Notes under the pieces: generated by a model | Told to the model about the DNA's origin: nothing | The model's input: the letters and a program-made list of their open reading frames with translations, nothing else | Databases searched by the model: none | Program-made: the position numbers and the translations under genes | Source of the DNA: a virus | Direction: 5' to 3' (one strand) | Length of the DNA stretch: 64,000 nucleotides | Virus record (IMG/VR): IMGVR_UViG_3300042569_001787 | Coordinates: 28,751 to 92,750 of that record | Part shown: positions 1,204 through 28,734 of the stretch, piece after piece | Layout: every line of letters starts with the position of its first letter | How positions within the stretch are numbered: the stretch's first letter is position 1

Positions 1204-1298
1204 CCTTCGGAATAAATTCCGAAAGGGATAAACCATCTAAAAGAAAGGGGGGATGTTCCAAATCTAACAAAGAGGTGTCGTGAGACACCTTTTTGTTT
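1204..1298 (+). ncRNA. Candidate small RNA or 3'UTR element: hairpin, 16S-tail complement, terminator
   Basis: Hairpin ccttcggaa-taaa-ttccgaaagg (1204-1226); AGAAAGGGGGGATGTTCCA (1242-1260); terminator aggtgtc-gtga-gacacct followed by T run. Confidence 0.5.
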
Positions 1299-1410
1299 TT
1301 TTCATATTATTGATTTAAAAATAATTCTACGGTATACTTATAGTAAGAATTATAATTAAATGAATAATCTCTATTGATTGTGATGATAAAATATTTACAA
1401 TTATTTACTA

Positions 1411-2112
1411 ATGGAGAATAATGAAAAATACGACTTTTGTATTGTTATTACAACATATGAAAGAGAAGATATGTTAAAACAATTATTGGAAGATATTTTT
1501 AAATACACCGAATATAAAATGTATGTGGTCGTGTTTGATGATGGGAGTAAGAGAACTTACGATTTAAGCAAATACGATGTAAAATATATTAAATACGTAA
1601 AAAATAATGGGTTAAAAAATCTTTGGAGAGTGATAAATGATGCCTTTAAATTTATCGGAAAAATAGACGCAAAATATTACTTTTATTTACAAGATGATTT
1701 AAGATTAAAAGAAAATTTTTTTGAAGAAAGTATTAGGATTTTTGAAAAAATTGATGATGATAAAAAAATTTGTTTGGAATTAAGAACGGACCAAAGAACT
1801 ACAAGACCCAATTGGACAGCAATTGAACCAAAAATTATTGATGAATATATACATACTCAATGGGTTGAGCTAGATTTTATATGTAAATACAATTTTTTTG
1901 AGGCCCTTAATTTTAAAATAAACCCAATACCTATGTCAAGATGGGATAAAAATCCGCATATTAGTAGTGGTGTTGGACAACAGATTAGTGTTAGATTATC
2001 TGAAAAAGGGTTAAATATGTATCACGTTATTAATACCTTGACAACTCACGGTGACCACGAATCTGTATTATTACCCGAACTTAGAAAAAATGAAAAATTA
2101 CTCGCAATATAA
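1411..2112 (+). CDS. Glycosyltransferase family 2-like
   Basis: VITTYER, VFDDGS and YLQDD GT-A motifs. Confidence 0.8.
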   Translation: MENNEKYDFCIVITTYEREDMLKQLLEDIFKYTEYKMYVVVFDDGSKRTYDLSKYDVKYIKYVKNNGLKNLWRVINDAFKFIGKIDAKYYFYLQDDLRLKENFFEESIRIFEKIDDDKKICLELRTDQRTTRPNWTAIEPKIIDEYIHTQWVELDFICKYNFFEALNFKINPIPMSRWDKNPHISSGVGQQISVRLSEKGLNMYHVINTLTTHGDHESVLLPELRKNEKLLAI

Positions 2113-2699
2113 TGAATATAAAAACTTATATAATAAACCTTGAACGAAGAACGGATAGGTTAAACGAATTAAAAATACCCTTTAACTACGAATTTTTTGT
2201 TGCGACAGATGGTATAAAAGTGTTTGATAGTGATGTTTACAGTAGAAAAGAATTGGCTCACTTAGGTTGTAAAGATAGTCATAAACGATTATTGTCTAAA
2301 ATATATGATGATGGGTTAGAACACTGTTTAGTTTTTGAAGATGATGTTGAATTGTGTGAAAATTTTGAAGTTAAATTAAATGAAATAATTGAAGAACTAC
2401 CAAAAGATTGGGATATAGTTTATTTAGGAGGATGGAACCTTGGAGATAAGAAACCATACTCAACTAAATTAGATATTGCCGAAAAAATTTACACTACCCA
2501 TTCTTATCTAATAAGACGTAAATTTATTCCAAAATTACTTGAAGAACTTGATACTAATGAATGTGAAAAAGTTGATGTTGTTTTTAGTGTTTTACAAGAA
2601 CAAAATAAATGTTTTATTACGTCACCTATTTTGTGTTGGCAAAGGGAAGGATTTAGTGATATTCAAAATAAAATAACTAATAATATACATTTATTATGA
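2112..2699 (+). CDS. Glycosyltransferase family 25 (LPS-biosynthesis type)
   Basis: YIINLERRTDR, GCKDSH, VFEDD signature. Confidence 0.85.
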   Translation: MNIKTYIINLERRTDRLNELKIPFNYEFFVATDGIKVFDSDVYSRKELAHLGCKDSHKRLLSKIYDDGLEHCLVFEDDVELCENFEVKLNEIIEELPKDWDIVYLGGWNLGDKKPYSTKLDIAEKIYTTHSYLIRRKFIPKLLEELDTNECEKVDVVFSVLQEQNKCFITSPILCWQREGFSDIQNKITNNIHLL

Positions 2700-3307
2700 T
2701 AATAACCTTTTATAATGCTAAGATAAACCAATCAGTGGTTACAAACCAAAAGAGAGTTTTTGAACATTTTAATATCGAATTAAATCAAATTGAATGCGGT
2801 CAATGGATTGGTCACGGAAAAGTAATAGATAAATATCTTAGAGAATGTAATCAAGATTGGGAATATCTGATATTATTTGATATTGACAGTATACCCCTCA
2901 ATGAAAAAATAATACCTGAAACTATTGAATGGATTAAGAATAACCACGGATTATTTTCTGTTGCACAAAAAGCTAGTCATATTAAAGATTCTATAGTTTA
3001 TGCGGGTCCTTGTTTTTTAGGGTTTAGTAGAGAAACCTACGAATTAATGGGCCGACCATCTTTTGACAAAACGTATCGTTCAGATTGTGCTGGTGAACTA
3101 ACTTATTTTGCAATTGATAAAGGATTTGAAGTTAAATTAATGTACCCATCAAGTGTTGAGGAACCAAGGTGGGATTTAGAAGATGGTGTTAAATTTGGGT
3201 TTGGTACTACTTATGAAAACAATATTTACCACTCGTTTGAATCACGATTTCACAATATTGATATGTTTATAAATAAATGTGAAAAAGTTTTGAATAATAA
3301 TGGATAA
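2696..3307 (+). CDS. Putative GT-A fold nucleotide-sugar transferase
   Basis: LFDIDSIP DxD motif, located in GT operon. Confidence 0.55.
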   Translation: MIITFYNAKINQSVVTNQKRVFEHFNIELNQIECGQWIGHGKVIDKYLRECNQDWEYLILFDIDSIPLNEKIIPETIEWIKNNHGLFSVAQKASHIKDSIVYAGPCFLGFSRETYELMGRPSFDKTYRSDCAGELTYFAIDKGFEVKLMYPSSVEEPRWDLEDGVKFGFGTTYENNIYHSFESRFHNIDMFINKCEKVLNNNG

Positions 3308-5036
3308 GATAATTTATAATATCGCCAGTTATAAAAGAGGTGATACGTTAATTAATACAATACAATCAATTTATAATCAATGTGATATTATCAACGTTGC
3401 CCTTAATGATTATGATGAAATACCTGTTGAATTATACGATAAAAAAATAAATTTGTTTATTACGGATAATGACAGAGGGGATGCGTATAAATTTTATAAA
3501 TTAATGGATTCTGATGGTTATTATTTTACAATAGATGACGATTTGATTTACCCTGAAAACTATACTAAATATATGGTTGACAAGGTTAATCAATATAATA
3601 GGAAGTCGATTATTACTTTACACGCACGAACTTTTAACTCATTCCCCATTAATAGTTATTATAATAGTAAATCATCTGTTTATCATTTTAAAAAATCATT
3701 GGATAAAGACCGTAAAGTACAATTTGGTGGTACTGGAGTAATGTGTTTTCACACTGATTTATTTAAAGTTCCTATTGAGTATTTTGATAAACCAAATATG
3801 GCAGATGTGTGGGTTGGTAAATACGCTAAAGAAAATAATATTGAAATTACATGTGTAGAACATAATGGAGGGTTTGTTAAACAACAAGATATTGATAGTA
3901 GTATATACAAAACTGGTTTGAAAAATGATGATATACAAACAAAATTAACTAACGAGTGTTATATAGATAAGGAAATTTCAATGAAATTAGTAATAGTATC
4001 AACGTTTTGGAATTCCGAAAAATTTGTTTCGGATTGTATTAAATCTTTAAAAAACCAATATTACACAAATTTTGTGTCATATATGATTGATGATATGTCG
4101 ACCGACAAATCATATGATGTTGCCAAAAAAGAAATTGGTGATGATGAACGTTTTATTCTTATAAAAAACACAGAAAAAAAATATAAAACCAAAAATTTTA
4201 TAGATGTTATTCGTAATAACAAAAATATTGATTCGAACGATGTTATTATTGAATTGGATGGGGATGACCAATTAATTGATAATTTTGTGTTAGGTTTAAT
4301 TAATAAAATTTACACTGACCCTAATATTTGGATTTGTGGTTCTAAATGGAGAGATAAAAAGGGTGGCACCATGAAGTATGGTAGAGCAAATGCGGATAAC
4401 CCTAGACGTACTAGTTGGAACTTTTCTCACATGAGAACTTATCGAGCATTTTTATTCAGAATGATAAAAGATGCTGATTTAAGATACAATGGGCAATATT
4501 TTAAAGCGGCAGTAGATTTAGGCATTGGGATACCTATGTTAGAAATGTCAGGTAATGAACATTATTATTTCTTAGATGAGGTAACCTATCTTTACACATG
4601 GCACAACCATCAATCCTATTCTAAAAATAGTTCTTTTGGAGATTCTAAATTACAAGGTCTTACCGCAAAACATATATACCAATTACCTGTTTATAAAAAA
4701 TTAATTATCGAGAAAGGTTACGATGAGATAAAAATTAATGTTGAAAACGTCCCGACATCAAAAGAGTTAATTAATAATTTATTAACTGATAAACCACTCA
4801 GCCCAAAGGTGTCTTCATTTAACTATGACTTAATTAATCAAATTATTCTTAACAAAAACGTGTATAACCCCAAAAATCATATTAAACCTATTAGGGAGAA
4901 TATTCCGTTAGACAGGAACAAATTAATTGAGATTAAAAAAGGTTCCATTGCCGACGAAGCAAGAAAGTCCTTAACAAAAACATTTAATAAGGTAAATAAG
5001 ACGCCAAATATTTTTGGAGGTAAAAAAAGAATGTAA
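3300..5036 (+). CDS. Tandem double GT2 glycosyltransferase
   Basis: Two GT-A domains (FTIDDDLIYP; IDDMSTD...ELDGDD). Confidence 0.8.
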   Translation: MDKIIYNIASYKRGDTLINTIQSIYNQCDIINVALNDYDEIPVELYDKKINLFITDNDRGDAYKFYKLMDSDGYYFTIDDDLIYPENYTKYMVDKVNQYNRKSIITLHARTFNSFPINSYYNSKSSVYHFKKSLDKDRKVQFGGTGVMCFHTDLFKVPIEYFDKPNMADVWVGKYAKENNIEITCVEHNGGFVKQQDIDSSIYKTGLKNDDIQTKLTNECYIDKEISMKLVIVSTFWNSEKFVSDCIKSLKNQYYTNFVSYMIDDMSTDKSYDVAKKEIGDDERFILIKNTEKKYKTKNFIDVIRNNKNIDSNDVIIELDGDDQLIDNFVLGLINKIYTDPNIWICGSKWRDKKGGTMKYGRANADNPRRTSWNFSHMRTYRAFLFRMIKDADLRYNGQYFKAAVDLGIGIPMLEMSGNEHYYFLDEVTYLYTWHNHQSYSKNSSFGDSKLQGLTAKHIYQLPVYKKLIIEKGYDEIKINVENVPTSKELINNLLTDKPLSPKVSSFNYDLINQIILNKNVYNPKNHIKPIRENIPLDRNKLIEIKKGSIADEARKSLTKTFNKVNKTPNIFGGKKRM

Positions 5037-5101: not shown

Positions 5102-5175
5102 GGCTTCGTAGCTCAATTGGACAGAGCAACACACTTCTAATGTGTAGGTTACTGGTTCGAATCCAGTCGAGGTCA
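5102..5175 (+). tRNA. tRNA-Arg(TCT)
   Basis: Acceptor ggcttcg/cgaggtc, anticodon loop c-t-TCT-aa, GGTTCGAATCC T-arm. Confidence 0.93.
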
Positions 5176-5189
5176 CTAAAATTTATTAT

Positions 5190-5441
5190 ATGGGAAGACA
5201 TGACAATATCTTAGAACAAGAACACAACGAGTTTGTTAATAGCGAACTATTTTGTCAAATGATTACGGAAAAAATAGAAAATTCACATTTTCATAAATAT
5301 GATGGTATAACACCTGAAGGGTTTTTACTTATACCCGAACAAACCTTAGAAAGGTTGAAAGATTTTGAAACTTGGAAAGAGTGGAAAAATAATCCATCAA
5401 TTTTAAAAAAAATGATGATTGACGATTTAAAAAATGAATAA
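5190..5441 (+). CDS. Hypothetical protein
   Basis: 83-aa ORF. Confidence 0.55.
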   Translation: MGRHDNILEQEHNEFVNSELFCQMITEKIENSHFHKYDGITPEGFLLIPEQTLERLKDFETWKEWKNNPSILKKMMIDDLKNE

Positions 5442-5479
5442 TTTTTTTGTAGATTAAAAAAAAATAGTACATTTGTGGT

Positions 5480-6187
5480 ATGAAATATTCAGCACTTAAA
5501 GACATCGTTTATATTGGTTTGATGGTTTTTGTTATCGGAGGAACCAATGAGTATTTGGAAAAATACGACTATAGTTATGACAAAGTAATGGGTTCTTTGG
5601 AGTCTGAGGCAAAAAGACTTGACAAAGTTTACGGTTATGACAAGAACTATTCAAAAGAAGAAGAGGTTAAAATTACTGATTCAAAACAACCATCTTCAAC
5701 TGAAGTTAGTTCTGACCGAGTAATCAACATCCACGGTTTTGGTAAATATACTCAAAGTGACCTTTATACAATCAAAGAAGGTGTTGAAAACTTCTACGGT
5801 ATCCGTTGTGTCATCTCTGAAAGTGTTGAGTCAGATGATTTTTACTATGACAATAACACTAACGTATTATTAGCGTACAAAGTATTAACATTATCTGTTG
5901 GTAAATCAAATATGAATATGTATGTTACTGACGAACCATTATGTAATGAAAATTCTAATGATTTGATTAGTGGACACGCAAGAATTAATTGTGACGGCTC
6001 TGTTATCAGTACTAAAGAAATGAGAAACAACAATCACTATAATAATACTAGTTTAGTTCATACTGCGGTACACGAATTAGGACATAACTTTGGGTTATCT
6101 CACTGTAATAACCAATCTTGTATCATGAAATCTCACGGTTTAGACACTAAAGAGTTCTGTAATGAGTGTAAATTAAAAATTAATTAG
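5480..6187 (+). CDS. Membrane-anchored zinc metalloprotease (archaemetzincin/M54-like)
   Basis: N-terminal hydrophobic segment; HELGHNFGLSHC..CIM and C-terminal CxxC. Confidence 0.8.
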   Translation: MKYSALKDIVYIGLMVFVIGGTNEYLEKYDYSYDKVMGSLESEAKRLDKVYGYDKNYSKEEEVKITDSKQPSSTEVSSDRVINIHGFGKYTQSDLYTIKEGVENFYGIRCVISESVESDDFYYDNNTNVLLAYKVLTLSVGKSNMNMYVTDEPLCNENSNDLISGHARINCDGSVISTKEMRNNNHYNNTSLVHTAVHELGHNFGLSHCNNQSCIMKSHGLDTKEFCNECKLKIN

Positions 6188-6212
6188 TGATAATTTTTTT
6201 ACATCAATAAAC

Positions 6213-6241
6213 AAAAAAAGGGGGATAATTCCCCCTTTTTT
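6213..6241. terminator. Bidirectional intrinsic terminator
   Basis: aaaaaaaggggga-taat-tcccccttttt between convergent genes. Confidence 0.75.
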
Positions 6242-6262
6242 CTTTGATTTGGTATTTATCAA

Positions 6263-6427
6263 CTATTTCTTTTTAGAAATAATTGACCACACACCACCTA
6301 CAAGTGTAACCGCTGCTCCGATAAGTTCTTGTACTGATGAATCAGTTGCAAGACCTTTCATAATCAGGATACCACCTACAAAAGTAAGTGCGTGTCTAAC
6401 GATACCTTGGATTTGTTCTTTAGTCAT
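6263..6427 (-). CDS. Small two-TM membrane protein, holin-like (54 aa, not in ORF track)
   Basis: MTKEQIQGIVRHALTFVGGILIMKGLATDSSVQELIGAAVTLVGGVWSIISKKK; TATTTAT motif upstream on the minus strand. Confidence 0.7.
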   Translation of the reverse strand: MTKEQIQGIVRHALTFVGGILIMKGLATDSSVQELIGAAVTLVGGVWSIISKKK

Positions 6428-7101: not shown

Positions 7102-7158
7102 TAAAAAATATTTTACAAATTGTTTGGCAAATCAAAAGTGATTATATATCTTTGTGAT

Positions 7159-7359
7159 ATGGAAATAACAATTAACATACCCAATAGTGTTCTTAATAGA
7201 ATGAAAGAACTCAAAATTACAGACGAAAATATTCAAAAAGAAATGGTAATTGATTTTATCAACGACTCTTTGGACTCACATTACGCCAACGGAATGTTTG
7301 ATAAATTCAGAAAATGGACATTAAAAAATGATAATTTTGAAGTTTATTTGGTAGATTAA
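7159..7359 (+). CDS. Hypothetical early protein
   Basis: In-frame ATG 4 nt after TATCTTTG. Confidence 0.55.
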   Translation: MEITINIPNSVLNRMKELKITDENIQKEMVIDFINDSLDSHYANGMFDKFRKWTLKNDNFEVYLVD

Positions 7360-7452
7360 AAAAAGTTTGTATCTTTGTAAGGCAAACAACGGGGGTAGGA
7401 AGTGAGAGGTTGATGTCCTACTCCCGTAAAGAAAGAAGAAGTTCATTGACAT
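7347..7452 (+). promoter_or_regulatory. Bacteroidota-type promoter, leader hairpin and boxA-like site of the tRNA operon
   Basis: TTTG 7347, TATCTTTG 7370-7377, hairpin cgggggtagga/tcctactcccg, GTTCATTGACAT 7441-7452. Confidence 0.65.
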
Positions 7453-7459
7453 TAAAATA

Positions 7460-7558: not shown

Positions 7559-7632
7559 GGTAACTATAGCTCAGTTGGTAGAGCAAAGGTTTGTGGTACC
7601 TTGTGCCATGGGTTCAATTCCCATTAGTTACC
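7559..7632 (+). tRNA. tRNA-His(GTG)
   Basis: Encoded G-1 and C73, anticodon loop tt-GTG-gt, canonical D and T arms. Confidence 0.93.
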
Positions 7633-7644
7633 CAAAAAAAATAT

Positions 7645-7718
7645 AGTTAATTAGCTCAGTTGGTTAGAGCAATTCCCTGATACGGAATAGGTCATTGGTT
7701 CGAGTCCAATATTAACTA
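7645..7718 (+). tRNA. tRNA-Ile(GAT)
   Basis: Acceptor agttaat/attaact, anticodon loop ct-GAT-ac. Confidence 0.93.
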
Positions 7719-7723
7719 CATAT

Positions 7724-7796
7724 CGCGGGATGTGGAAATTGGTCATCCGCTCGGTCTCATAAGCCGAGATTACAGGTTCGAGCCCTGTTCCCGCAA
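7724..7796 (+). tRNA. tRNA-fMet(CAT), initiator type
   Basis: cgcggga/tcccgca with C1:A72 mismatch; anticodon loop ct-CAT-aa. Confidence 0.88.
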
Positions 7797-7804
7797 CAAC
7801 AAAA

Positions 7805-7864
7805 GGGTAGAATATTCGTAAGGGCCTTTCCTGAAAGATGGCTAGCTAGGCCCGTGTCTACCCT
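7805..7864 (+). ncRNA. Unassigned 60-nt structured RNA between tRNAs
   Basis: Outer stem agggtaga/tctaccct, inner stem gggcct/aggccc. Confidence 0.45.
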
Positions 7865-7871
7865 GATTTTT

Positions 7872-7943
7872 GGTCCCATCGACTATCGGTTAGGTCGTCA
7901 GGTTTTCATCCTGGAAAGTCGGGTTCGATTCCCGGTGGGACTA
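7872..7943 (+). tRNA. tRNA-Glu(TTC)
   Basis: Acceptor ggtccca/tgggact, anticodon loop tt-TTC-at. Confidence 0.93.
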
Positions 7944-8056
7944 CTATAGCCAACCAAGCTTTACTACGATAAGGGTTCATACCTTGACTTTACTAAATAA
8001 ACGCTTAATAGAACAAAGTACAAGTTCAGAGTGAGGAGCGGGTCTCACAAACTTTT

Positions 8057-8129
8057 GGTCCCGTGGTTGAATGGTTACAATTCCACCCTGTCACGGTGCG
8101 AGATACGGGTTCGAATCCCGTCGGGACCG
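8057..8129 (+). tRNA. tRNA-Asp(GTC)
   Basis: Acceptor ggtcccg/cgggacc, anticodon loop ct-GTC-ac. Confidence 0.93.
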
Positions 8130-8152
8130 CAAAATAATGAATAATAACTATT

Positions 8153-11733: not shown

Positions 11734-11776
11734 ACAATCCCCCTTTTTTAGGGGGTTTTTTTTCTTTAAAAAAAAA

Positions 11777-12000
11777 TTTAGTAAATCAAAAAAGTTTACT
11801 TATCTTTGTACAACAAAAGAGATAGATAACAATTCAGATACAAATCTTAAAAAAAAAATAAAAAAAGATTTGGTAAATCGAAAAAGTTTACTTATCTTTG
11901 TACAACAAAAGAGATAGATAACGATTCAGATACAAATCTTTAAAAAAAATAAAAAAAGATTTGGTAAATTGAAAAAGTTTACTTATCTTTGTAAAACAAA
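11777..12000 (+). repeat. About 2.5 tandem copies of a 91-92 bp unit, each carrying a Bacteroidota promoter
   Basis: TATCTTTG at 11801, 11893 and 11984, each preceded by ttt(a/g)gtaaat..aaaaagtttact. Confidence 0.9.
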
Positions 12001-12017
12001 TCGGAAGAGTCCGAAAC

Positions 12018-12029
12018 GTTCTTTGAAAT
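12018..12029 (+). promoter_or_regulatory. boxA-like antitermination site
   Basis: GTTCTTTGAAAT, resembling rRNA-operon boxA. Confidence 0.55.
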
Positions 12030-12069
12030 ATTATTATCCATTACAACACTTCGGTGTTGTATAAAAGAT

Positions 12070-12877
12070 AATCGGCCGTATATGGTCGTTAAATAAACCT
12101 CGAAAGGGGGATAAAGTGAAATCATCGTGTTAATGGTTTTGCGGTTCGGGTAACCGAACTCGAGTATACAAGTGGGATATCAGTGAGCCTGTAGTACCGA
12201 GGATAACTTCGTAGGGAAATGGAAAACTGAACGGGCAATGTGGATTGTCAGTTTGAGGTGGGAACACCAATAAGAATAACCCATAGGGGCCAAGTGAGAA
12301 GTGTACTCCAAATACACAATTGCGGGTCCCAATATAAGAGGTGACTTAAAACCGAAGGGATAAAACCTGAAGGTAAGATAGAGAACGAGTGGTGTCGCTA
12401 ATATCCTTACCACAGACCCACCAAGGTCTTGGTACGAAGTAATCTTAAAATATGAGAGTGGGGACACTCTACCGAGTAGAAAAGTATCTTGTTGTTCAAA
12501 AGACAACGAGGCTTAAGACGGACCTCTACTTGGAATCATCCACAACACATAACTTATACTAAATTTAAGTAAAACTAAAATAACTATAAGCAAAAGTGTT
12601 CGTCAGGTTTTGATGAAAGTCGCCTACATAGTCATGAGTTGTTCATGGCATACCGAGACCGCAAGTCAACGTATATTGTTACCAAAAACCTCTAAGGAGT
12701 CGAATCCTAAGTCAGTTCGCAAGATTGAGGAGAGTAGAGTAGTAATAGAGTAGTTAAAACCTTAAGAAGTGATTGGTCTAACCAATCGGCGATGAGGATT
12801 ACCATTCAAAAGATGGTGGAAATGAAGGGAAACAATAATCCTTCTAAAGATTCTCACAAAACGGTGTATTCTCAGCC
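12070..12877 (+). ncRNA. Large structured ncRNA, GOLLD-like
   Basis: ~810 nt with no credible ORF, raised GC, many hairpins with GNRA-type loops, two halves joined by an AT-rich linker (~12545-12590), strong promoters upstream and terminator downstream; family name from size, context and recalled motifs only. Confidence 0.65.
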
Positions 12878-13019
12878 CTTTTTAAAATTACCCAATATAT
12901 AGAATACGATTTTTAATCAAACCTCAATAATCTTGGGGTTTTTTTATTTTAAAAAAAGTTTTGTAATTTAATTTATGTGTATAAAAAAACCCCACCTTTT
13001 TAAGATGAGGTTTAATTAG

Positions 13020-13406
13020 TGGAGGTAGAGGGGTTCGAACCCTCGTGTTGTACACCTTACCTATTAAGGACTACACGCTTAGGATAACATTTTCTAATGT
13101 TCCAAAAATAGTTAGTTCGTTCTTCACCATCGTAAACTAACAACCAATGGATGACTCAATTTTGGGTTCAGTCATTTTTCCACCCTTGTAAAGACTTCTG
13201 TTCCTAGGTTGTATGTCCACCGACCCGTATGGTTGTTTCCTATATGTTAGGCAACTACCGCAGCGTCTTCACGGATTAATCCGATTGTCGCCATTTTGTT
13301 TAAAACGTTTCCGTTTACTGTTTACATCCGTAGATTTAAGTGAAAGGATACATCTCACTGCGTGCCCCGAATAACTAACAATGCCAGTCAATTCCAAGTT
13401 ACCCCC
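13020..13406 (-). ncRNA. ssrA: tmRNA
   Basis: 5' GGGGGUAACUUGGAAUUGAC; 3' T-arm GAGGGUUCGAACCCCUC-UACCUCCA with G3.U70; tag frame 13312-13247 GNVLNKMATIGLIREDAAVVA*. Confidence 0.92.
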
Positions 13407-13494: not shown

Positions 13495-14859
13495 GTGAAA
13501 GATTCAAAAAATGCTAAAATAATATTTGAAAACGAGTATGTTGTATTTGTACAGGTGTTCAACAAGAACGCGGCCACATATTACGGACCTCCAAAAGTTA
13601 CTGAATTATATGACCGAGATTTTAGTCATGGTGAATTATTTTTTGCCGTAAGTAAATTTAATCCTGGCCCTGAATATATATATACACTATACAAACCTAC
13701 AGACGGTGAACTTGAATACTATTCAGGTATTGAATTAAAACTTGAAAGTTACGATAACATCACATTTAAGTATCCGTACTTAAAACCCTATGTCCAAGAT
13801 ATTAGAGGAAATAGTGAAATATATGATTTGTTATTGAAAATTAAAAATGGTCAAAAGGTAAATAACTGGGACGCTAATAACTTTGACCCAATCGTATATG
13901 ACATCAAATTTAATGAACAAACACCGGGTAAGAGTAGAGTTAAATTAAAATTTGACAATTATGAGGATTATTGGAAATTATTTGACCTATCTGATGGAGA
14001 TATTTGGTTTGCAAATTACGTATATTCTAATTATGAGTCCTACGATTTTGAAAGTGGAGATTTTGTTGATGAGGATTGGAAAAGAGGTTATTTATTACGT
14101 GAATTAAATGATGAAAACCTAATTAAATTAAAAGAAATTTTAAAAATACTATCACCAGAACTTTCACAATTACGAAATGATGAAGAATGGGAAAAATCGT
14201 CTAGTTTATTATTAACAACATTTGAACGTGAATCTCAGGAAATTATGTCTGATTGGTTGTCAGAAAGAAATAACTGTAAAGAACGAGGTGCCCGTAAGAT
14301 GATGGAAGACGACTGTTGTAATTTTTTCCAAAATTATGGAATATTCAATATGGGAAATTGTTTTTATAGTTATGTGACGACAGTATCGGTGTTATTATCT
14401 TTATATTCAATGACGGGAGAAAGACATTTAACGGTTAGTGAGGTTTTAAGTGATATTGGACATAAATCAGGCAATATTGGTGGATGGGAAGAATATTCTT
14501 ATGAACAAGATTGTATTGATTTTGATGATGAATCATTTAATCGTACTTGTGGTTGGCAATTAGATAATATGTTTACTAAACTTGAAGACTCTGACGAATT
14601 TGAGGATATTAAAAAATTCTCAGATAATGCGTCAAAAATTTTAAGTAAGTACGATATGGAAACTAATTACAAATTACCCAAAGACGAATCAAGAAATTTT
14701 AAAATAGTTAAAATGAACCCAAAAACAAATAAAGTCCATGTTGTGGTTTCATTAAAAGGTGGGTATCGTGGAGAAGAAAGAAGTTATGATTTTGAAGACT
14801 TTGACCAACTTTTACATCAATCGGAATTATTTGAAAATAAATTTGTCAAAGTCAAGTAA
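13495..14859 (+). CDS. Hypothetical protein
   Basis: 454-aa ORF with TATTTAT motif upstream. Confidence 0.7.
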   Translation: MKDSKNAKIIFENEYVVFVQVFNKNAATYYGPPKVTELYDRDFSHGELFFAVSKFNPGPEYIYTLYKPTDGELEYYSGIELKLESYDNITFKYPYLKPYVQDIRGNSEIYDLLLKIKNGQKVNNWDANNFDPIVYDIKFNEQTPGKSRVKLKFDNYEDYWKLFDLSDGDIWFANYVYSNYESYDFESGDFVDEDWKRGYLLRELNDENLIKLKEILKILSPELSQLRNDEEWEKSSSLLLTTFERESQEIMSDWLSERNNCKERGARKMMEDDCCNFFQNYGIFNMGNCFYSYVTTVSVLLSLYSMTGERHLTVSEVLSDIGHKSGNIGGWEEYSYEQDCIDFDDESFNRTCGWQLDNMFTKLEDSDEFEDIKKFSDNASKILSKYDMETNYKLPKDESRNFKIVKMNPKTNKVHVVVSLKGGYRGEERSYDFEDFDQLLHQSELFENKFVKVK

Positions 14860-14877
14860 TTTACTTATCTTTGGCCT

Positions 14878-15708
14878 ATGGAGAGAAACTATCAATTACT
14901 AAAGGACGTTTTGTCGGTCCCAACAAAGACATATAAGGAAGACCGAATGATTGAGTTTTTAGTTAATTGGTTAACTGAAAACCAAATACCATTTCAAGTT
15001 GACAAACACCGAAACATTTACGCAACTAAAACATCTCAGGATATTACTGAAGATTTCTTTTTCCCGTGTGTTATTGCCCATACTGACACCGTACATCAAT
15101 TAGATGTTATAAACGTCAAAGAAATGGAATTACCTAACGCTCAGGGAGTAATTAAACCATCTTTAAAAGCGTTCAACGATTTAGGACAATCAACAGGAAT
15201 TGGTGGTGATGATAAATGTGGCGTTTATGCATGTTTAGAATTATTAAAAGAATTACCAAATCTTAAAGCAGCATTTTTTGTTTCTGAAGAAACAGGTTGT
15301 CACGGTTCAAAACAAGCCGATAAAGATTTCTTCAAGAACGTAGGGTACGGAATTCAATTTGATGCACCTGAGAATTGGATGGTTAGTGAGTTCTGTATGG
15401 GTGTTCAGTTATTTGGTAGAGACACCGAGTTTTTTAAATCGTGTGATGAGGTATTAACCGAAACATTTAATCCTGACAGAAAATATCAGTCTCACCCATA
15501 TACCGATGTTTACGCATTGAAGAATACATTTGACTTCTCATGTATTAACTTCTCAATTGGGTACTATGATTACCACACAAGAGAAGAATATGTGGTTATT
15601 GAGGATGTTTATAACGGAATTAAAACGGGTAAAGAATTAATTGAAAAATTGGGTAACGTAAAATACCCATTCAAATCAAAACCACGATACAGTTATTTAT
15701 TTGACTAA
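14878..15708 (+). CDS. M20/M28-family zinc peptidase
   Basis: AHTDTV, GGDDKCG, SEETG and YHT..E motifs. Confidence 0.85.
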   Translation: MERNYQLLKDVLSVPTKTYKEDRMIEFLVNWLTENQIPFQVDKHRNIYATKTSQDITEDFFFPCVIAHTDTVHQLDVINVKEMELPNAQGVIKPSLKAFNDLGQSTGIGGDDKCGVYACLELLKELPNLKAAFFVSEETGCHGSKQADKDFFKNVGYGIQFDAPENWMVSEFCMGVQLFGRDTEFFKSCDEVLTETFNPDRKYQSHPYTDVYALKNTFDFSCINFSIGYYDYHTREEYVVIEDVYNGIKTGKELIEKLGNVKYPFKSKPRYSYLFD

Positions 15709-15906: not shown

Positions 15907-17949
15907 TTATTCAACCCCTTTTCTTTTTCGTGTAACTTTCTTCACTTCTTTAAATTTAACATCCCCATTTTCACTAATTAACGTATATTTAGTGTTTTCT
16001 TGAATGTTACTCTTAAGAACTTCTTCCGATATAAAGTCTTCAATTTTATCTTGAATAGCCCTTTTCAATGGACGAGCCCCATACATGTCATCAAACCCAA
16101 CCTCAGAAATCATATCGACAAGTGAGTCATCAAATATTATATTATATTTAAGACCCGTTAATCTTTCTGATAAGACACTCAACTCAAGTTTAACAATTTT
16201 TTTAACATCTTCTTTCACTAATGAATTAAAAATAATGACTTCATCAATACGGTTTAAAAATTCAGGGGCAAAAAACTTCTTAAGCTCTTTCTTCAAAACT
16301 TCTCTTTTTTGTTCTTCTTCAACGTAAGAACTTGAGCTAGTTTTAAACCCTACTCCAGCACCAAAATCTTGTAGTTTCTTAACCCCAACATTTGATGTCA
16401 TAATAATAATACAGTTTTTGAAATTAATCTTTCTTCCCATACCATCAGTTAGATGACCGTCATCCAACACTTGTAATAATGTTGAGAATATGTCTTTGTT
16501 TGCTTTTTCAATCTCATCAAACAAAATTACTGAGTAAGGTTTGTTTTTAACTTGTTCGGTTAATTGTCCTCCTTCATCATAACCAACATATCCTGGAGGT
16601 GCTCCAATTAATCTTGAGATACTATGTTTTTCTTGATATTCAGACATATCTACACGAATCATATTTTCCTGACTACCAAACATTTGTTTTGCTAATTGTT
16701 TTGCTAAGTAGGTTTTACCCACACCTGTTGAACCAAGAAAAATAAATGAACCAATTGGTTTATTAGGGTCTTTGATGCCTAATCTGTTTCGTCTGATTGA
16801 CTTAGCGATTTTCATAACCGCCTCAGATTGCCCAATAACTTTATCAGATAAGTTTGCCTCCATTTCAGACAATAATTTAGTTTCATCCGCATTTAGTTTA
16901 CTGATAGGGATTTTGGTCATATTTGAAACAACCTCATAAACCAATTCAATAGAAACTTCTTTCTTCTTAACTAAAAGTTCATCTTCAAATTTTTTCTTCT
17001 CAACATCTAATTTATTAAGAATACGTTTTTCTTTATCACGTAAATTTGCAGCTTCTTCGTAATTTTGTTTTTTAACAACATCAAGTTTTTCAATTTTAAC
17101 ATCTGTGGCCGCTTGTTTTAATTTTTCAATAATCTCAGGCATTTTAATTTCAACCTGACATCTTGCACCAACCTCATCAATAATATCAAACGCTTTATCA
17201 GGGAACTCTCTATCCGTGATATATCTTGCGGCCAAATCAACACACACAGAAAGTACTTCATCAGTATAGGATACCTTATGGAATGTTTCGTACTTATCTT
17301 TAACATTTTTAAGAATCTCTAATGTTTCTTCTTTTGTTGAAGCGTCAACAATAACTTTTTGGAAACGTCTTTCTAACGCTCCATCCTTCTCAAAGTTTTT
17401 ACGATACTCATCAAGAGTTGTAGCACCAACACATTGAATTTCTCCACGAGCAAGTGCTGGTTTAAAGATATTTGACGCATCTAAAGAACCTGATGAATTA
17501 CCCGCCCCAACTATAGTGTGAATCTCATCAATAAACACAATGATATTTGGGGCGTTTTGTAATTCCTCAATAATTACTTTCATACGTTCCTCAAACTGAC
17601 CACGATATTTTGTACCCGCAACTATTGAAGTCATATCCAACGATACAATTCTTTTATCCATTAAATTTCTTGGACATTCGCCGTTAAAAATTTTAATTGC
17701 CAATCCTTCTACAATTGCAGTTTTACCACAACCAGGCTCACCAATAATAATAGGGTTGTTTTTCTTTCTACGAGAAAGAATTTGGGCAATCCTCGTAATT
17801 TCTCTCTCTCTACCAACAACAGGGTCTAATTTACCTTGTTCGGCTAATTTAATTAAATCTCTACTGAAGTTATCCAACACAGGTGTTGAAGAGTCAGATA
17901 TTGATTTAGGTGGGTTATTCTTCCCCCCGTTGTCCACAGATTCTATCAT
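15907..17949 (-). CDS. clpC: ClpC-type AAA+ unfoldase lacking the N-terminal repeat domain
   Basis: Two AAA modules (GEPGCGKT, GSTGVGKT), UVR-like middle domain, VGF ClpP-docking loop; starts almost at 'LDNFSRDL'. Confidence 0.9.
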   Translation of the reverse strand: MIESVDNGGKNNPPKSISDSSTPVLDNFSRDLIKLAEQGKLDPVVGREREITRIAQILSRRKKNNPIIIGEPGCGKTAIVEGLAIKIFNGECPRNLMDKRIVSLDMTSIVAGTKYRGQFEERMKVIIEELQNAPNIIVFIDEIHTIVGAGNSSGSLDASNIFKPALARGEIQCVGATTLDEYRKNFEKDGALERRFQKVIVDASTKEETLEILKNVKDKYETFHKVSYTDEVLSVCVDLAARYITDREFPDKAFDIIDEVGARCQVEIKMPEIIEKLKQAATDVKIEKLDVVKKQNYEEAANLRDKEKRILNKLDVEKKKFEDELLVKKKEVSIELVYEVVSNMTKIPISKLNADETKLLSEMEANLSDKVIGQSEAVMKIAKSIRRNRLGIKDPNKPIGSFIFLGSTGVGKTYLAKQLAKQMFGSQENMIRVDMSEYQEKHSISRLIGAPPGYVGYDEGGQLTEQVKNKPYSVILFDEIEKANKDIFSTLLQVLDDGHLTDGMGRKINFKNCIIIMTSNVGVKKLQDFGAGVGFKTSSSSYVEEEQKREVLKKELKKFFAPEFLNRIDEVIIFNSLVKEDVKKIVKLELSVLSERLTGLKYNIIFDDSLVDMISEVGFDDMYGARPLKRAIQDKIEDFISEEVLKSNIQENTKYTLISENGDVKFKEVKKVTRKRKGVE

Positions 17950-22669: not shown

Positions 22670-22673
22670 GAAA

Positions 22674-23996: not shown

Positions 23997-25766
23997 ATGT
24001 TAAATTTATCCAAAGAACAGGTACTAATCGAGTACGTAAAATGTCATAAGGATGTAAAATACGCGTTAAGAACTTATCTACAAACCTACGACAATACAGT
24101 TTCTAAATACGTACCATTAGAATTATTTCCTGACCAAGCATCATTACTTGAAGATTACGAGAATTATAACGAAAACATCGCCCTAAAATATCGACAAGCG
24201 GGAGTATCTACAGTTACCGCCGCTTGGGCTTCGATGAAACTTTCTTTTGCTAAAAAAAATAAACCCGAAAAAGTTCTTATAATTGCTAATAAACTTGATA
24301 CGTCATTAGAAATGGCGAACAAGATTAGAGCCTTTGTTGGTCAATGGCCAAGTTGGGTTGGGGTTGACTTTGCAGTTGAAAAAAACTCACAAAAACATTA
24401 TAAATTAAATAACGGTAGTGAGGTTAAAGCCGTTGCAACATCTAAAGATGCCTTACGTGGATTTACTCCTACAATACTTGTATTTGATGAGGCGGCGTTT
24501 ATCGAGGCCGACAGTGATTTTTGGGCGGCTTGTATGGCGTCCCTATCTACAGGAGGTAAAGTAATTGTAGTCTCAACGCCAAATGGTTATGACCGAATTT
24601 ATTATGAAATATACGACCAAGCATTAAGAAACATGAATGACTTTAGGATTACTGAAATGTATTGGTTTCGTGACCCTCGTTATACAAAAGATTTATATTT
24701 AGTTAAAACCGAGGATATGATTCACTATCTTTTAAATAAAGAAGAGTACAGTGAAAAAGATATACTTAGTTGGTCACATATACCAGCATCCGAAAGAGAT
24801 TATAGTGAACTAAAAAAATTAATGGACCAAGGTTATAAACCTTGTTCTTCTTGGTTTGAGGCGATGGTTAAGAAATTAAAATATGATAAACGTAAAGTAT
24901 CTCAGGAGTTGGAATGTAACTTCTTAGGTTCAGGTGATAACGTATTTGATTCTAAAATGTTACAAACTATTAGAGAAAATTCTATTACAGAACCCAAGAA
25001 TAAAATGATGGGTAATGCTTTATGGATTTGGAAAGAACCTGTTGTTGGTCATAAATACATTATGGGGGTTGACGTATCTCGTGGGGATAGTGAAGATTTT
25101 AGCTCCTTTCAAATTATTGATTTTGATGAGAGAGAACAGGTTGCGGAATATGTTGGTAAATTACCACCAGATACTATGGCGGAAATTTGTTATAAATGGG
25201 CCAACATGTATTCATGTTTTATTGTAATTGATATTACAGGTGGGATGGGTGTTTCCACATCAAGAAAATTACAGGAAATGGGTTACAAAGACTTATATGT
25301 TGATGGTGTCGATACGGCTAATAAGTGGAAATACGATGCCAAGGCACATGAAAAAATACCAGGGATTAACTTTAACAATAAAAGGGTTCAAATTATCGCG
25401 TCATTTGAAGAGGGGGTGAGACATGGATTTAAAATTTATAGTTCAAGACTTTTTAATGAAATGAATACGTTCATCTACATTAATGGCCGTCCTGACCACC
25501 AAAAAGGACATCATGACGATTTAATTATGTCGGTGGCTATGGCAACTTACGTTGCCGAGTCTTCATTTAGTAATTTGACTAAGGTTGTTGAGCACACTAA
25601 AGCGATGATTGAGGCTTGGGCGGTTAATAATAATGACCAAACATCAAAAAAATTAGAATTTAATCCTGTTATACCGCACATGTCTGAAAGAATTAATCAG
25701 TATAACAGTCAGAACATGTCTAGAGAAGATTATCAAAAGTATGGTTGGTTATTTGGCGTTAGATAA
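23997..25766 (+). CDS. terL: Terminase large subunit (T4 gp17-like)
   Basis: KYRQAGVST Walker A, LVFDEAAF Walker B, VSTPNG, GVDVSRG nuclease motif, HDDL. Confidence 0.95.
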   Translation: MLNLSKEQVLIEYVKCHKDVKYALRTYLQTYDNTVSKYVPLELFPDQASLLEDYENYNENIALKYRQAGVSTVTAAWASMKLSFAKKNKPEKVLIIANKLDTSLEMANKIRAFVGQWPSWVGVDFAVEKNSQKHYKLNNGSEVKAVATSKDALRGFTPTILVFDEAAFIEADSDFWAACMASLSTGGKVIVVSTPNGYDRIYYEIYDQALRNMNDFRITEMYWFRDPRYTKDLYLVKTEDMIHYLLNKEEYSEKDILSWSHIPASERDYSELKKLMDQGYKPCSSWFEAMVKKLKYDKRKVSQELECNFLGSGDNVFDSKMLQTIRENSITEPKNKMMGNALWIWKEPVVGHKYIMGVDVSRGDSEDFSSFQIIDFDEREQVAEYVGKLPPDTMAEICYKWANMYSCFIVIDITGGMGVSTSRKLQEMGYKDLYVDGVDTANKWKYDAKAHEKIPGINFNNKRVQIIASFEEGVRHGFKIYSSRLFNEMNTFIYINGRPDHQKGHHDDLIMSVAMATYVAESSFSNLTKVVEHTKAMIEAWAVNNNDQTSKKLEFNPVIPHMSERINQYNSQNMSREDYQKYGWLFGVR

Positions 25767-25787
25767 TATTTATTAATAAAACATCAC

Positions 25788-25943
25788 ATGGGATTAACTT
25801 CTAGAAAAAAATCGGGGAATAAGATTAATGGTAGTAAATTAAACGTGCCTGGTCAGGGTATTAGTAATGTTAAACCTGGTGGTGATAATAAAATAAACCA
25901 ACAAAAAGGTGACCCTAACAGAAAAAAAGGTAATCAAAATTAA
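25788..25943 (+). CDS. Small basic protein (51 aa, not in ORF track)
   Basis: MGLTSRKKSGNKINGSKLNVPGQG...; TATTTAT upstream. Confidence 0.5.
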   Translation: MGLTSRKKSGNKINGSKLNVPGQGISNVKPGGDNKINQQKGDPNRKKGNQN

Positions 25944-25980
25944 CTATTTAATTATAGATAATTAGAATTAAATTTATTAT

Positions 25981-27804
25981 ATGGAAAATAATCAAAATAA
26001 TCAATTTACAGTTTGGCAGAGGTTATCCCAAGCTTTTGGGCCTAACGCCCTGTTAAATCAAGATTATCCAACATATAATTTAGACAAGACTGAGTTATTA
26101 AAAACATCATCAAAACAGGAATACGAAAGAGAAAAACTACAAGCTCAACAAACGTTTTACTTAGCCAATCAATGGACAAAAATTGAGAGTAACTTATATA
26201 CTCAAGCGGTTTATTATGAACCAACAAGATTAGCATCATTCTATGATTACGAATCTATGGAATATACTCCCGAAATTTCGGCGGCTTTAGATATCTACGG
26301 TGAAGAATCAACAACTGTTGACCAAAATGGATACATGTTACAAATTTATTCAGAATCTAAACGTATTAAATCAATCTTAATTGATTTATTTAATAATGTT
26401 TTAGACATCAATACTAATTTACCAATGTGGACAAGAAATACCGCAAAATACGGTGATAATTTCGTTTATCTAAAATTAGACGCCGAGAAAGGTATTGTTG
26501 GTTGTATGCAATTACCAAATATTGAGATTGAACGACTTGAAAGAGGTATGGCGGCAAAATCTGCAAACGTTGAGGAACCCGTAGAAAACAAAGGTTTAAG
26601 ATTTAAGTGGAAAGCTAAAGACATGGAATTTAATTCATGGGAAATTGCTCACTTTAGATTATTAGGTGATGATAGAAAATTACCTTATGGTACTTCTATG
26701 TTAGAAAAAGCAAGACGTATTTGGAAACAATTATTATTGTCGGAAGACGCAATGTTAATCTATCGAACTTCAAGAGCACCTGAAAGACGTGTATTTAAAG
26801 TTTTTGTTGGTAACATGGACGATAAAGATGTTGAGTCATATGTACAACGTGTTGCAAACAAATTTAAACGTAGTCAGGTGGTTGATAGTCAATCAGGTAA
26901 TGTTGATATGAGATTTAACCAAATGGCGGTTGACCAAGATTATTTTATTCCTGTTCGTGACCAAGCAGCGCCAAATCCAATTGATACTTTACCTGGAGCT
27001 CAGAACCTTTCTGAAATTGCTGATATTGAATACATCCAAAAGAAATTATTAACCGCACTTCGGGTACCTAAGGCGTTTTTAGGGTTTGAGGAAGTAGTTG
27101 GTGATGGTAAGAATTTATCATTACAAGACATCCGTTTTGCAAGAACAATTAATAGAATTCAAAAATCTATGATTGCAGAAATGAATAAAATCGCTATCAT
27201 ACATTTATTCTTATTAGGTTTTGAAGATGAATTATCAAACTTTACCTTAGGATTAACTAATCCATCAACACAAGCCGATTTATTAAAAATTGATGTTTGG
27301 AAAGAAAAAGTTTTATTATACAAAGATGCTGTAACGGCAATCGAGGGTATTGCACCAGTGTCAGTGACTTGGGCTAAGAAACATGTACTAGGATTCTCGG
27401 ATGAAGAAATTAAATTAGATTTGCAACAACAACGTGTTGAAAAAGCCGTTGGGGCAGAATTAACTAATACCGCAACTATTATCAACCATACAGGAGTATT
27501 TGATAATATTGACAAATTATATGGTGTTAAATCAGGCTCAACTCAAAATGTGGGGGCGACCCCACCACCTTTAGGAGGATTAGGAGGTCCTGAAGATACT
27601 GGCGGAGGAGCACCACCACCACCTCCAGGTCCTGAAATAGGTGGTGACGCGGGGATAACACCTGAGTCATTTAAACGTGATAATTTATCAATTTTATTAG
27701 AAAGTGATAACTTAACAGAGTCAGATTCATTTATTGATTTATCTAAAGCAAGAAATTCTTTAGGTGAAATAGAGAAAGAATTAAACAAAATTCTAAAAGA
27801 TTGA
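25981..27804 (+). CDS. Portal protein (T4 gp20-like)
   Basis: EDAMLIYRTSRAPERRVF..VGNM, DYFIP, IDTLPG, ALRVP. Confidence 0.95.
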   Translation: MENNQNNQFTVWQRLSQAFGPNALLNQDYPTYNLDKTELLKTSSKQEYEREKLQAQQTFYLANQWTKIESNLYTQAVYYEPTRLASFYDYESMEYTPEISAALDIYGEESTTVDQNGYMLQIYSESKRIKSILIDLFNNVLDINTNLPMWTRNTAKYGDNFVYLKLDAEKGIVGCMQLPNIEIERLERGMAAKSANVEEPVENKGLRFKWKAKDMEFNSWEIAHFRLLGDDRKLPYGTSMLEKARRIWKQLLLSEDAMLIYRTSRAPERRVFKVFVGNMDDKDVESYVQRVANKFKRSQVVDSQSGNVDMRFNQMAVDQDYFIPVRDQAAPNPIDTLPGAQNLSEIADIEYIQKKLLTALRVPKAFLGFEEVVGDGKNLSLQDIRFARTINRIQKSMIAEMNKIAIIHLFLLGFEDELSNFTLGLTNPSTQADLLKIDVWKEKVLLYKDAVTAIEGIAPVSVTWAKKHVLGFSDEEIKLDLQQQRVEKAVGAELTNTATIINHTGVFDNIDKLYGVKSGSTQNVGATPPPLGGLGGPEDTGGGAPPPPPGPEIGGDAGITPESFKRDNLSILLESDNLTESDSFIDLSKARNSLGEIEKELNKILKD

Positions 27805-27823
27805 TATTTATAAATAAAAAGAG

Positions 27824-28543
27824 ATGACAAATTTTGGAATAATTAAATCAAAGATTGAAGATGTGTTATTAGAGTCATATAAAAATGACACATTTAAAGA
27901 AGAATTCAAAAAATTTAAAAAGTTAGTTTTAGAAAATAAAAAGATACGCAAACTTTTTTATTTGTATGATGATTTATCTTCTAATAAAGGATTGGCAGAA
28001 TCTATTGTTGACGATTATGTGAATGAATGTATTACCATTTATGAAAATACCATTAATAAAATACAAGAGTCGGATATTACCCCACTAAAGTTATGGGTTA
28101 AAAATTCTAAAGTTGTTAATCAGTATAATAATATTGATAATTTATTCTCAAGAGATATTTTAACAATTGAATCAAGAATAACAAGTAAAAAACTTATTTC
28201 TGAAACTATTAAGAAATTACCTATCAAGAAAACAGACACCGTTCAAATTCCGTTAACCTCTATGGTAAACATTGCAAATAAAACAATCTCAAATTTTATT
28301 GAGTCATTGAGTGAGTCAGATAAAAAAGAATTAACAAAATTTTTATCTGAAGATGATGTTACTTTAAATCAAAAATTTGATAATGTTAAAGAAAGTGTTG
28401 TGAATAAATTAACTGAAATGAAAAATAATAATAAGGACAAGTCAACTCAAATAAGAATTGATGAAACTCTTGATAAAGTAATATCAGAAAAATACGACAA
28501 GTTAACTTATTTCAAACTTAAAAGTTTGAATGAGAATCTTTAA
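27824..28543 (+). CDS. Hypothetical head-module protein
   Basis: 239-aa helical ORF after the portal gene. Confidence 0.65.
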   Translation: MTNFGIIKSKIEDVLLESYKNDTFKEEFKKFKKLVLENKKIRKLFYLYDDLSSNKGLAESIVDDYVNECITIYENTINKIQESDITPLKLWVKNSKVVNQYNNIDNLFSRDILTIESRITSKKLISETIKKLPIKKTDTVQIPLTSMVNIANKTISNFIESLSESDKKELTKFLSEDDVTLNQKFDNVKESVVNKLTEMKNNNKDKSTQIRIDETLDKVISEKYDKLTYFKLKSLNENL

Positions 28544-28734
28544 TCATTGTTTGATTTATATTTTTTTTGTACGTATTTTGCTTTTGAAATTTCATTTCTC
28601 CTTTTAACGGATTTTTTTTGGAATTCTTTTCTCTCGTTTAATTCTCTACTTTGTCTTGTCTTTATAACTTTACTTTTGTAAATTTTTAACGCTTTTTCAA
28701 GAGTTACATTCTTTCCTACTTTTACTATTAACAT
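28540..28734 (-). CDS. rpsU: Ribosomal protein bS21
   Basis: MLIVKV...LEKALKIYKSKV...ELNERKEFQKKSVKRR matches the bS21 pattern. Confidence 0.9.
   Translation of the reverse strand: MLIVKVGKNVTLEKALKIYKSKVIKTRQSRELNERKEFQKKSVKRRNEISKAKYVQKKYKSNND

Follow-up and report, generated by a model that had tools for sequence, protein, structure and literature searches.

A freshwater phage clade carrying bS21, tmRNA, GOLLD RNA and a small RNA that resembles the Shine–Dalgarno sequence of Flavobacterium rpsU

Huge phages have been proposed in general to redirect host translation through bS21, tRNAs, transfer-messenger RNA (tmRNA) and SmpB (Al-Shayeb 2020, PMC7162821). For freshwater Bacteroidetes phages, Chen 2022 (PMC9723584) described five clades with genomes of 293–331 kb and the same bS21 arrangement, and proposed that, late in infection, host ribosomes take up the phage bS21 in place of their own; the idea of a bS21 hijack of ribosomes is already in print for both groups. 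Here we report on a stretch of 64,000 nucleotides (the window), bases 28751–92750 of the 92.7-kb IMG/VR record IMGVR_UViG_3300042569_001787 (CheckV completeness of the record, 32%), and above all on a small three-hairpin RNA in it whose loop matches the Shine–Dalgarno (SD) sequence of host rpsU leaders. A preliminary description, made from the sequence alone, had listed bS21, an RNA complementary to the 16S tail, an atypical initiator tRNA, tmRNA with a ClpC unfoldase and apparently leaderless mRNAs as parts of one coordinated programme. The genes and RNAs on this list were all recovered by family matches, alignment or conservation; for the leaderless mRNAs the promoter geometry proved exact in three genes and a second motif recurred before others, the leaderless state itself being a prediction from sequence. 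On balance we favour a joint explanation in which the window is about one fifth of a ~300-kb myophage with freshwater Bacteroidota hosts of Flavobacteriia type; the clade encodes a full trans-translation pair, tmRNA in the window and SmpB elsewhere in the genome, with a phage-specific 21-residue tag; and the translation-related genes form a loose toolkit, separately transcribed and separately inherited, each probably acting on host translation in its own way, with the small RNA as a decoy.

The window belongs to the published freshwater bS21-phage clade (PMC9723584), because its T4-type portal and terminase with an adjacent reverse-strand bS21 match the arrangement described there. bS21 lies on the reverse strand with two hypothetical neighbours and the genes for the large terminase (TerL), portal and head proteins at most five genes away, and it adjoins the portal in 28 of 30 portal relatives. 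As in the phages of Chen 2022 (~300 kb, ~30% GC), the GC content of the window is ~30%, reverse-strand bS21 stands near TerL, portal, prohead protease and major capsid protein, Tyr54 of bS21 is kept, and glycosyltransferases and Clp/chaperone genes are present; tRNA number varies among those phages (5–25). In contrast, tmRNA, SmpB, GOLLD, initiator tRNA, leaderless promoters and the small RNA have no mention in that paper, and as far as our literature searches show, the rpsU-mimic RNA, the tmRNA and SmpB with a private tag, the ClpC without its N-terminal domain, GOLLD and the AUG-abutting promoters are unpublished. The translation suites of huge phages (PMC7162821; Mizuno 2019, PMC6375957) also comprise bS21, tRNAs, tmRNA and SmpB, with redirection of host translation proposed; what differs here is a host blind to SD sequences and an RNA mimic of the one SD that it has. 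IMG/VR holds at least 595 portal relatives, the best 80 of which show 79–100% identity, and Megablast against GenBank phages returned nothing beyond one 66-nt GOLLD fragment. Bacteroidota-type promoters (TTTG / TAHHTTTG) were found upstream of the tRNA array, GOLLD and tmRNA. Coordinates of all features are collected in Table 1.

Table 1. Features of the window, with positions counted from its first nucleotide
Feature	Position	Strand	Basis or remark
Small three-hairpin RNA	1194..1304	+	P1 hairpin, P2 closing purine loop UAAAAGAAAGGGGGG, intrinsic terminator
tRNA-Arg(TCT)	5102..5176	+	ARAGORN and Rfam, 70.4 bits
Host-type promoter TACATTTG, 4 nt, ATG of 235-aa metallopeptidase-like gene	5440..5482	+	Predicted leaderless
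Host-type promoter TATCTTTG, 4 nt, ATG of 66-aa open reading frame	7120..7161	+	Predicted leaderless
tRNA cluster His, Ile, Met(CAT), Glu, Asp	7560..8130	+	Host-type promoter ~7360 upstream
Initiator-type tRNA-Met(CAT)	7724..7797	+	Alignment with four Flavobacterium initiator tRNA genes
92-bp tandem repeat, 2.6 copies, upstream of GOLLD	11767..12000	+	Host-type promoter (TTTAC..TTATCTTTG) in each copy
GOLLD RNA	11996..12950	+	Rfam-conserved 3' domain 12472–12878; 5' domain and ends predicted
tmRNA, 21-codon tag GNVLNKMATIGLIREDAAVVA and stop	13017..13406	-	Rfam RF00023; own host-type promoter ~13420–13445
Host-type promoter TATCTTTG, 4 nt, ATG of 276-aa M20/M28-like peptidase	14845..14880	+	Predicted leaderless
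ClpC-type double-AAA+ unfoldase, 680 aa, without N-terminal domain	15907..17949	-	Pfam and structure-sequence matches
Large terminase and T4-type portal (conserved head module framing bS21)	23997..27804	+	Family matches, synteny of relatives
bS21, 64 aa	28540..28734	-	Pfam Ribosomal_S21; inside head module, just after portal

A small RNA with the loop of host rpsU leaders

Flavobacterial genes have essentially no SD sequence apart from rpsU, which is translated by bS21-free ribosomes, whose 16S tail is free (PMC9976891). The small RNA begins a few nucleotides 3' of the stop codon of a 577-aa gene and folds with -37.3 kcal/mol (z -5.9); it had no Rfam match at E≤1. Pattern scans of IMG/VR revealed two main subfamilies, one with the loop GGGGG and one with GGGAGG, besides a third, minor variant. 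In each of 17 related records, the two complete genomes among them, covariance model R1 found a single strong copy. The RNA always stands directly after homologues of the 577-aa gene, and while the identity of these proteins is only 27–87%, ~40 nt of the RNA are near-invariant. The fold itself is conserved by covariation. Across 30 distinct sequences, 18 of the 26 pairs changed on both sides, a count matched by none of 500 shuffles, and slid controls gave at most 9 pairs; P1 and the terminator covary strongly, P2 modestly. The upstream 577-aa protein falls into no family of Pfam or PHROG, its homologues are without exception hypothetical proteins, its Atlas scores are at most 0.80, and its AlphaFold model is poor (pLDDT 57, pTM 0.28).

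For the pairing partner we took the 16S tail of Jha 2021 (SD oligo AGAAAGGAGGU, tail ACCUCCUUUCU) together with the 19-mer GCUGGAACACCUCCUUUCU, which is present in over 120 genomes, with few exceptions from Bacteroidota. The stretch AGAAAGGGGGG-AU-GUUCCA of the small RNA pairs with GCUGGAACACCUCCUUUCU at -24.5 kcal/mol, and positions 1239–1262 hold the strongest 16S-tail complement of the whole 92.7-kb record. Opposite 16S nt 1534–1544 the RNA presents AGAAAGGGGGU, forming 11 bp with one G.U pair, and the complementarity reaches 17 in some members. Over the family, the duplex with the 16S tail has an energy of -18 to -30 kcal/mol, beside -19 to -23 for host rpsU leaders.

The loop, AAAGAAAGGGGGU, is nearly identical to the extended SD of Flavobacterium rpsU. 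Its form (A/U)UAAAGAAAGGGGGU(A/G)U equals the host sequence, including the G that forms a G.U pair with U1537. The leader of Flavobacterium sp. LB2P74 reads ...CUUAAAGAAAGGGGGUGUCUAUAUUAUG, that of F. laiguense GAAAGGGGGUGA, and that of a third Flavobacterium GAAAGGAGGUGU, with the GGAGG form; the leaders UUAAAGAAAGGGGGUGU and GAAAGGGGGUGA share the G.U-forming GGGGG of the phage loop. The resemblance to the extended SD described for Flavobacteriales rpsU (Jha 2021, PMC7797042; McNutt 2023, PMC9976891) is one of sequence, AAAGAAAGGGGGU(G)U being the complement of 16S nt 1534–1544 and beyond, and also of setting, as the only strong SD in a genome otherwise without them. The differences are that the phage RNA has no start codon or open reading frame (ORF) and shows the sequence in the loop of a hairpin that precedes a terminator, and that its complementarity extends up to 17 nt, compared with 13 in the host leader. 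No AUG, GUG or UUG is conserved after the loop among the family members, and the one AUG in the window (MFQI and stop) is absent from relatives. Because the start codon that a leader would have 5–12 nt downstream is not conserved, we regard the small RNA as a mimic of the rpsU SD and not as a leader.

An antisense partner for the mimic was also sought. The best sites in the 92.7-kb record, at window 6203–6232 (-), window 11731–11760 (+) and genome 17441–17470 (-), are terminator halves, and no partner was confirmed here. For the syntenic candidate at genome 17430–17535, the own and cross duplex energies were equal (-21.3 versus -20.8), and its sequence changes are compensated within its own hairpin, a negative outcome for this candidate. 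A mimic-like string at 56691–56720 was dropped; it lies inside a coding region, with promoter and terminator absent nearby. In its own right, the element at 17430–17535 (G000:C1, upstream of the window) is a three-hairpin structure between convergent genes, present in 7 relatives with compensatory changes; it holds the invariant ACGGUCCUAAA and acts as a bidirectional terminator. A further look-alike is the 3' untranslated region (UTR) of a 54-aa ORF at window 6203–6427 (-). This region (GAUAAAUACCAAAUCAAAGAAAAAAGGGGG..CCCCCUUUUUUU) resembles the mimic RNA, yet forms a plain terminator; the ORF has two hydrophobic segments (holin-like) and lies behind a late-type ATTTAT motif.

Phage bS21 and a possible decoy for the ribosomal tail

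The protein encoded just after the portal matches Pfam Ribosomal_S21 (PF01165) with E 1.9e-9 and 37.5 bits (cut-off, 27), and shares 41–43% identity with three Flavobacterium bS21 proteins. The aromatic residue 54 of bS21 stacks on A1534 and holds the anti-Shine–Dalgarno (ASD) tail (PMC7797042, PMC9723584); the phage protein has Tyr54 in the context KAKY54VQ, where the hosts have KAAY54IQ. The leader of the phage bS21 mRNA is A-rich and without an SD.

From these features we infer how the small RNA may act. Showing the extended SD of host rpsU without a start codon, it would most likely be a decoy that binds 30S subunits deficient in bS21 by their freed 16S 3' tail. Such a decoy would interfere with the loop by which the host resupplies bS21, while the SD-less mRNA of the phage paralogue could still be translated, and this paralogue keeps the Tyr54 used for holding the ASD tail. 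Capture of bS21-free subunits is a plausible and, judged from sequence and structure, the most economical reading of the small RNA, and the match of its loop to host rpsU leaders lends support to a link with host bS21 autoregulation. In mode of action it would resemble sRNA sponges and decoys such as CrfA of Caulobacter (PMC12559287), non-coding RNAs that titrate a base-pairing partner; the proposed partner here is the 16S rRNA 3' tail and not an sRNA or mRNA.

Several observations weigh against the decoy. In this genome the complementarity is barely beyond that of shuffles (-24.5 versus -22.9 kcal/mol), and its weight therefore comes from conservation and not from chance statistics. The metatranscriptome contigs examined leave 1194–1304 uncovered, which says nothing either way on expression. 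16S nt 1528–1530 lie in helix 45 and may perhaps not be free to pair. One relative, G033, keeps the small RNA without bS21, which makes the RNA independent of the phage protein. Lastly, a purine tract with a G-run (GAUAAA..CCA..AAAAGGGG) also stands at two ordinary terminators of this genome, so that the loop may descend from terminator architecture.

This last point, like the weak single-genome energy statistic, would fit a different account, namely that the small RNA is a structured 3' UTR or terminator cassette that stabilises or terminates the upstream mRNA, with the SD likeness a by-product of an A-tract and G-run design. The RNA is indeed always attached to the 3' end of one gene, and the strings ahead of the two plain terminators have the form GAUAAA..CCA..A-rich..GGGG. 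In the small RNA, however, the G-run is not paired with a C-run; it lies in a loop closed by P2, which covaries separately, and before a separate terminator. The ~40 nt of unpaired sequence are near-invariant where the neighbouring protein falls to 27% identity, and the match takes in both UUCCA, opposite 16S UGGAA, and GGGGG, the form of the rpsU SD that is specific to the host. We consider a mere cassette unlikely. A sensor acting in cis was also considered, in which a bS21-free 30S subunit docks on the mimic and masks the 5' half of the terminator 12–15 nt downstream, giving readthrough into the next genes. The mimic is directly 5' of the intrinsic terminator and inside the 30S footprint, as this would need; but the downstream genes vary among relatives, the GT2 gene of the window is unmatched in the other 17 loci, and no alternative antiterminator pairing was seen at the element, and such a sensor seems very improbable indeed.

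The decoy reading can be carried further. In an extended form, the decoy would block bS21 resupply, phage bS21 from its SD-less mRNA would progressively replace that of the host, and the altered ribosomes, together with the phage initiator tRNA and AUG-first mRNAs, would favour the phage; we put this forward tentatively and hold it to be doubtful as a whole. If it is true, pairing with the ASD tail of rRNA would be a mode of action known from no earlier viral RNA. Bacteroidia ribosomes hide this tail, whose one known job, as far as known, is to sense bS21 shortage via the rpsU leader. McNutt 2023 (PMC9976891) speculated that rpsU autoregulation would counter phages exchanging bS21, and foresaw such a contest between phage and host without finding one. 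A clade with its own bS21 and a start-less copy of the rpsU leader would give a virus a concrete means of breaking the feedback control of a ribosomal protein.

Separability of the translation-related parts

We then compared the parts across the clade. GOLLD, tmRNA, ClpC and bS21 are present wherever a contig reaches the syntenic place (30 portal relatives). All of this co-occurrence falls inside one vertically related clade, and it reflects vertical inheritance; it is therefore not independent evidence of joint function. Individual relatives show the parts to be separable. In G033 (261 kb, 89% complete), only 82 nt lie between the homologues of p239 and p156, the site of bS21 in the window, and this genome retains the small RNA together with ClpC, tmRNA and GOLLD. 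Across 92 kb of G004, whose portal is 94% identical, tRNA genes are absent altogether, and G023, from another lineage, has tmRNA and no GOLLD. In the window the parts spread over 27 kb in at least six transcription units, on both strands and with their own promoters, and are interleaved with glycosyltransferases, cell-wall peptidases, terminase, portal and head genes. Given parts that are separable, run from their own promoters on either strand and stand among unrelated genes, we read the region as a toolkit.

The preliminary description had instead proposed a single ribosome-takeover programme, in which bS21, the 16S-complementary RNA, the initiator tRNA and leaderless mRNAs reprogramme initiation, and tmRNA and ClpC clear host products. 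Part of this stands, as the components are real and all bear on translation, either initiation or rescue, within 27 kb; several are core to the clade, a private initiator tRNA accompanies the predicted leaderless mRNAs, and a phage tag unlike the host tag makes a private degradation route conceivable. The coordination is not supported, since the parts come apart in relatives. SmpB is moreover far from tmRNA, and ClpP is absent from the complete genomes. In E. coli, ribosomes without bS21 are said to favour leaderless translation, a result attributed to Kaberdina in 2009; such a preference would not fit an extra supply of bS21. We rate a coordinated programme as quite improbable. Within the toolkit, bS21 and the rpsU-mimic RNA are the only pair with a specific and plausible functional link, and the value of the finding lies in the parts list and in this link, not in one integrated system.

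Trans-translation, GOLLD, tRNAs and start-abutting promoters

The tmRNA gene scores 72.1 bits against Rfam RF00023 (gathering score, 47), and its tRNA-like domain has the G3.U70 pair and the acceptor stem GGGGGUA/UACCUCC. The tag frame GNVLNKMATIGLIREDAAVVA, ending in a stop after 21–23 codons, is kept with conservative changes in eight phage tmRNAs (the window and seven relatives). ARAGORN fails on seven of these eight, including that of the window, so the call rests on Infernal and the conserved tag frame. Host tags were checked in three Flavobacterium genomes, two of which gave GENNYALAA and GEGNYALAA, while the third call looks misframed; the phage tag is twice as long and has a different ending. 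SmpB is encoded in all five large relatives, including both complete genomes, and lies ~97 kb from tmRNA in G031; it was not found on the 32%-complete fragment that holds the window.

The phage ClpC aligns to residues ~152–805 of S. aureus and B. subtilis ClpC with E 1e-222, and contains the Pfam domains AAA, AAA_lid_9, UVR, AAA_2 and ClpB_D2-small and the ClpP-docking loop GAGVGF. It has no Clp_N match, the alignment beginning at ClpC residue 152. It shares with Firmicutes ClpC (PDB 6em8, 3j3s) the pair of AAA+ rings, the M domain of UVR type and the VGF loop for ClpP docking; it differs in lacking the N-terminal domain, to which MecA, McsB and arginine phosphate bind, and in the absence of a phage ClpP, none being found in either of the two complete relatives. 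The bS21-less G033 does encode a ClpP (192 bits), at G033:C1:252736–253263, unlike those two genomes, both of which carry bS21. In G023 (L086:13208–16966) and also in G029, the ClpC gene is interrupted near codon 56–75 by a 393-aa ORF (15423–16604), which may be an intein, an intron or a homing-endonuclease insertion.

Adjoining tmRNA is a GOLLD RNA that the preliminary description did not list. It matches Rfam RF02032 over its full length (model positions 1–416) with 324.3 bits (gathering score, 150), and for the prediction of its ends we used a terminator-like hairpin and the last copy of the promoter. As each copy of the upstream repeat holds a full host-type promoter, GOLLD is probably driven by three tandem promoters. 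In two lake metatranscriptomes, GOLLD contigs (12083–12281, 12257–12789 and 12455–12883) have depths of ~475–1165 and contigs of neighbouring genes 2–25, and tmRNA is covered at 13019–13370 with ~30–160; all of these are contig depths and hence only a qualitative hint, here that GOLLD is highly expressed. GOLLD is convergent with the tmRNA gene in 16 of the 16 clade records that hold it. This adjacency is not general, as in LR756502.1 GOLLD is followed by a tRNA-like gene, with no tmRNA within 6 kb. Known GOLLD RNAs (RF02032; Weinberg 2009 as cited in PMC6582537) are likewise phage-borne, next to tRNA-type genes and highly expressed; set against what PMC6582537 relates of them, the convergent tmRNA gene of this clade and the three tandem promoters of the window are different. 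Through this clade, abundant in lakes, GOLLD gains a host–virus system related to Flavobacterium, which can be cultured. A gene for a tRNA or a tRNA-like RNA stands 10–17 nt 3' of GOLLD in several relatives and also in a 642-kb phage that is unrelated (L085:11266–11338 in G022, G032:98942–99014, G035:72140–72212 and L383:6415–6488 in LR756502.1). G022 has at this place a tRNA-Met of initiator-like form (A1xA72, two G-C pairs), and in LR756502.1 the anticodon loop is unusual. Within the 5' half of GOLLD in G010, G013 and G024, ARAGORN calls further long shapes that are tRNA-like.

The initiator-type tRNA-Met of the window has the acceptor stem and T arm of the Flavobacterium initiator and a divergent D arm. 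Its 1:72 mismatch is C1xA72, compared with C1xU72 in the Flavobacterium host, and its purine 11 : pyrimidine 24 pair is G11:C24. In the anticodon stem the hosts have three G-C pairs, whereas the phage has G29-C41, G30-C40 and U31.G39; the replacement of the third G-C pair makes it atypical. BLAST of this tRNA against five relatives gave no match, and relatives instead hold a different initiator-like tRNA directly 3' of GOLLD. The whole tRNA cluster is absent from close relatives. Metatranscriptome contigs cover 7374–7643, and the ~180 nt between the promoter and tRNA-His (7374–7560) have many G-runs and hairpins, with a contig depth of 25–31; this segment could represent another non-coding RNA or else a long, structured leader of the tRNAs.

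In F. johnsoniae, the G of TAHHTTTG lies at -5, with 4–5 nt to the transcription start, and 87% of leaders are longer than 10 nt (Baez 2019, PMC6847099). In the window, TAHHTTTG-N4-ATG occurs at 5480, 7159 and 14878, in each case before a real ORF (235, 66 and 276 aa), and a fourth case at 6607, TATCTTTA, has the same promoter-to-ATG geometry. Because the N4 spacing puts the start site there, transcription is predicted to begin on the A of the ATG. A second motif, ATTTAT(T), ends 2–5 nt 5' of the ATG in 10 of 66 genes, including portal, where ~0.4 would be expected by chance; it looks like a late promoter abutting the start codon, and could instead be an A/U-rich initiation context. No SD was seen upstream of phage genes in the window leaders examined. 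Leaderless mRNAs are thus a well-founded prediction. Elsewhere in the window, the small RNA is followed by a run of four genes (1411–5036), three of them glycosyltransferases (GT2, GT25, GT2), a block that is not conserved at this place in relatives.

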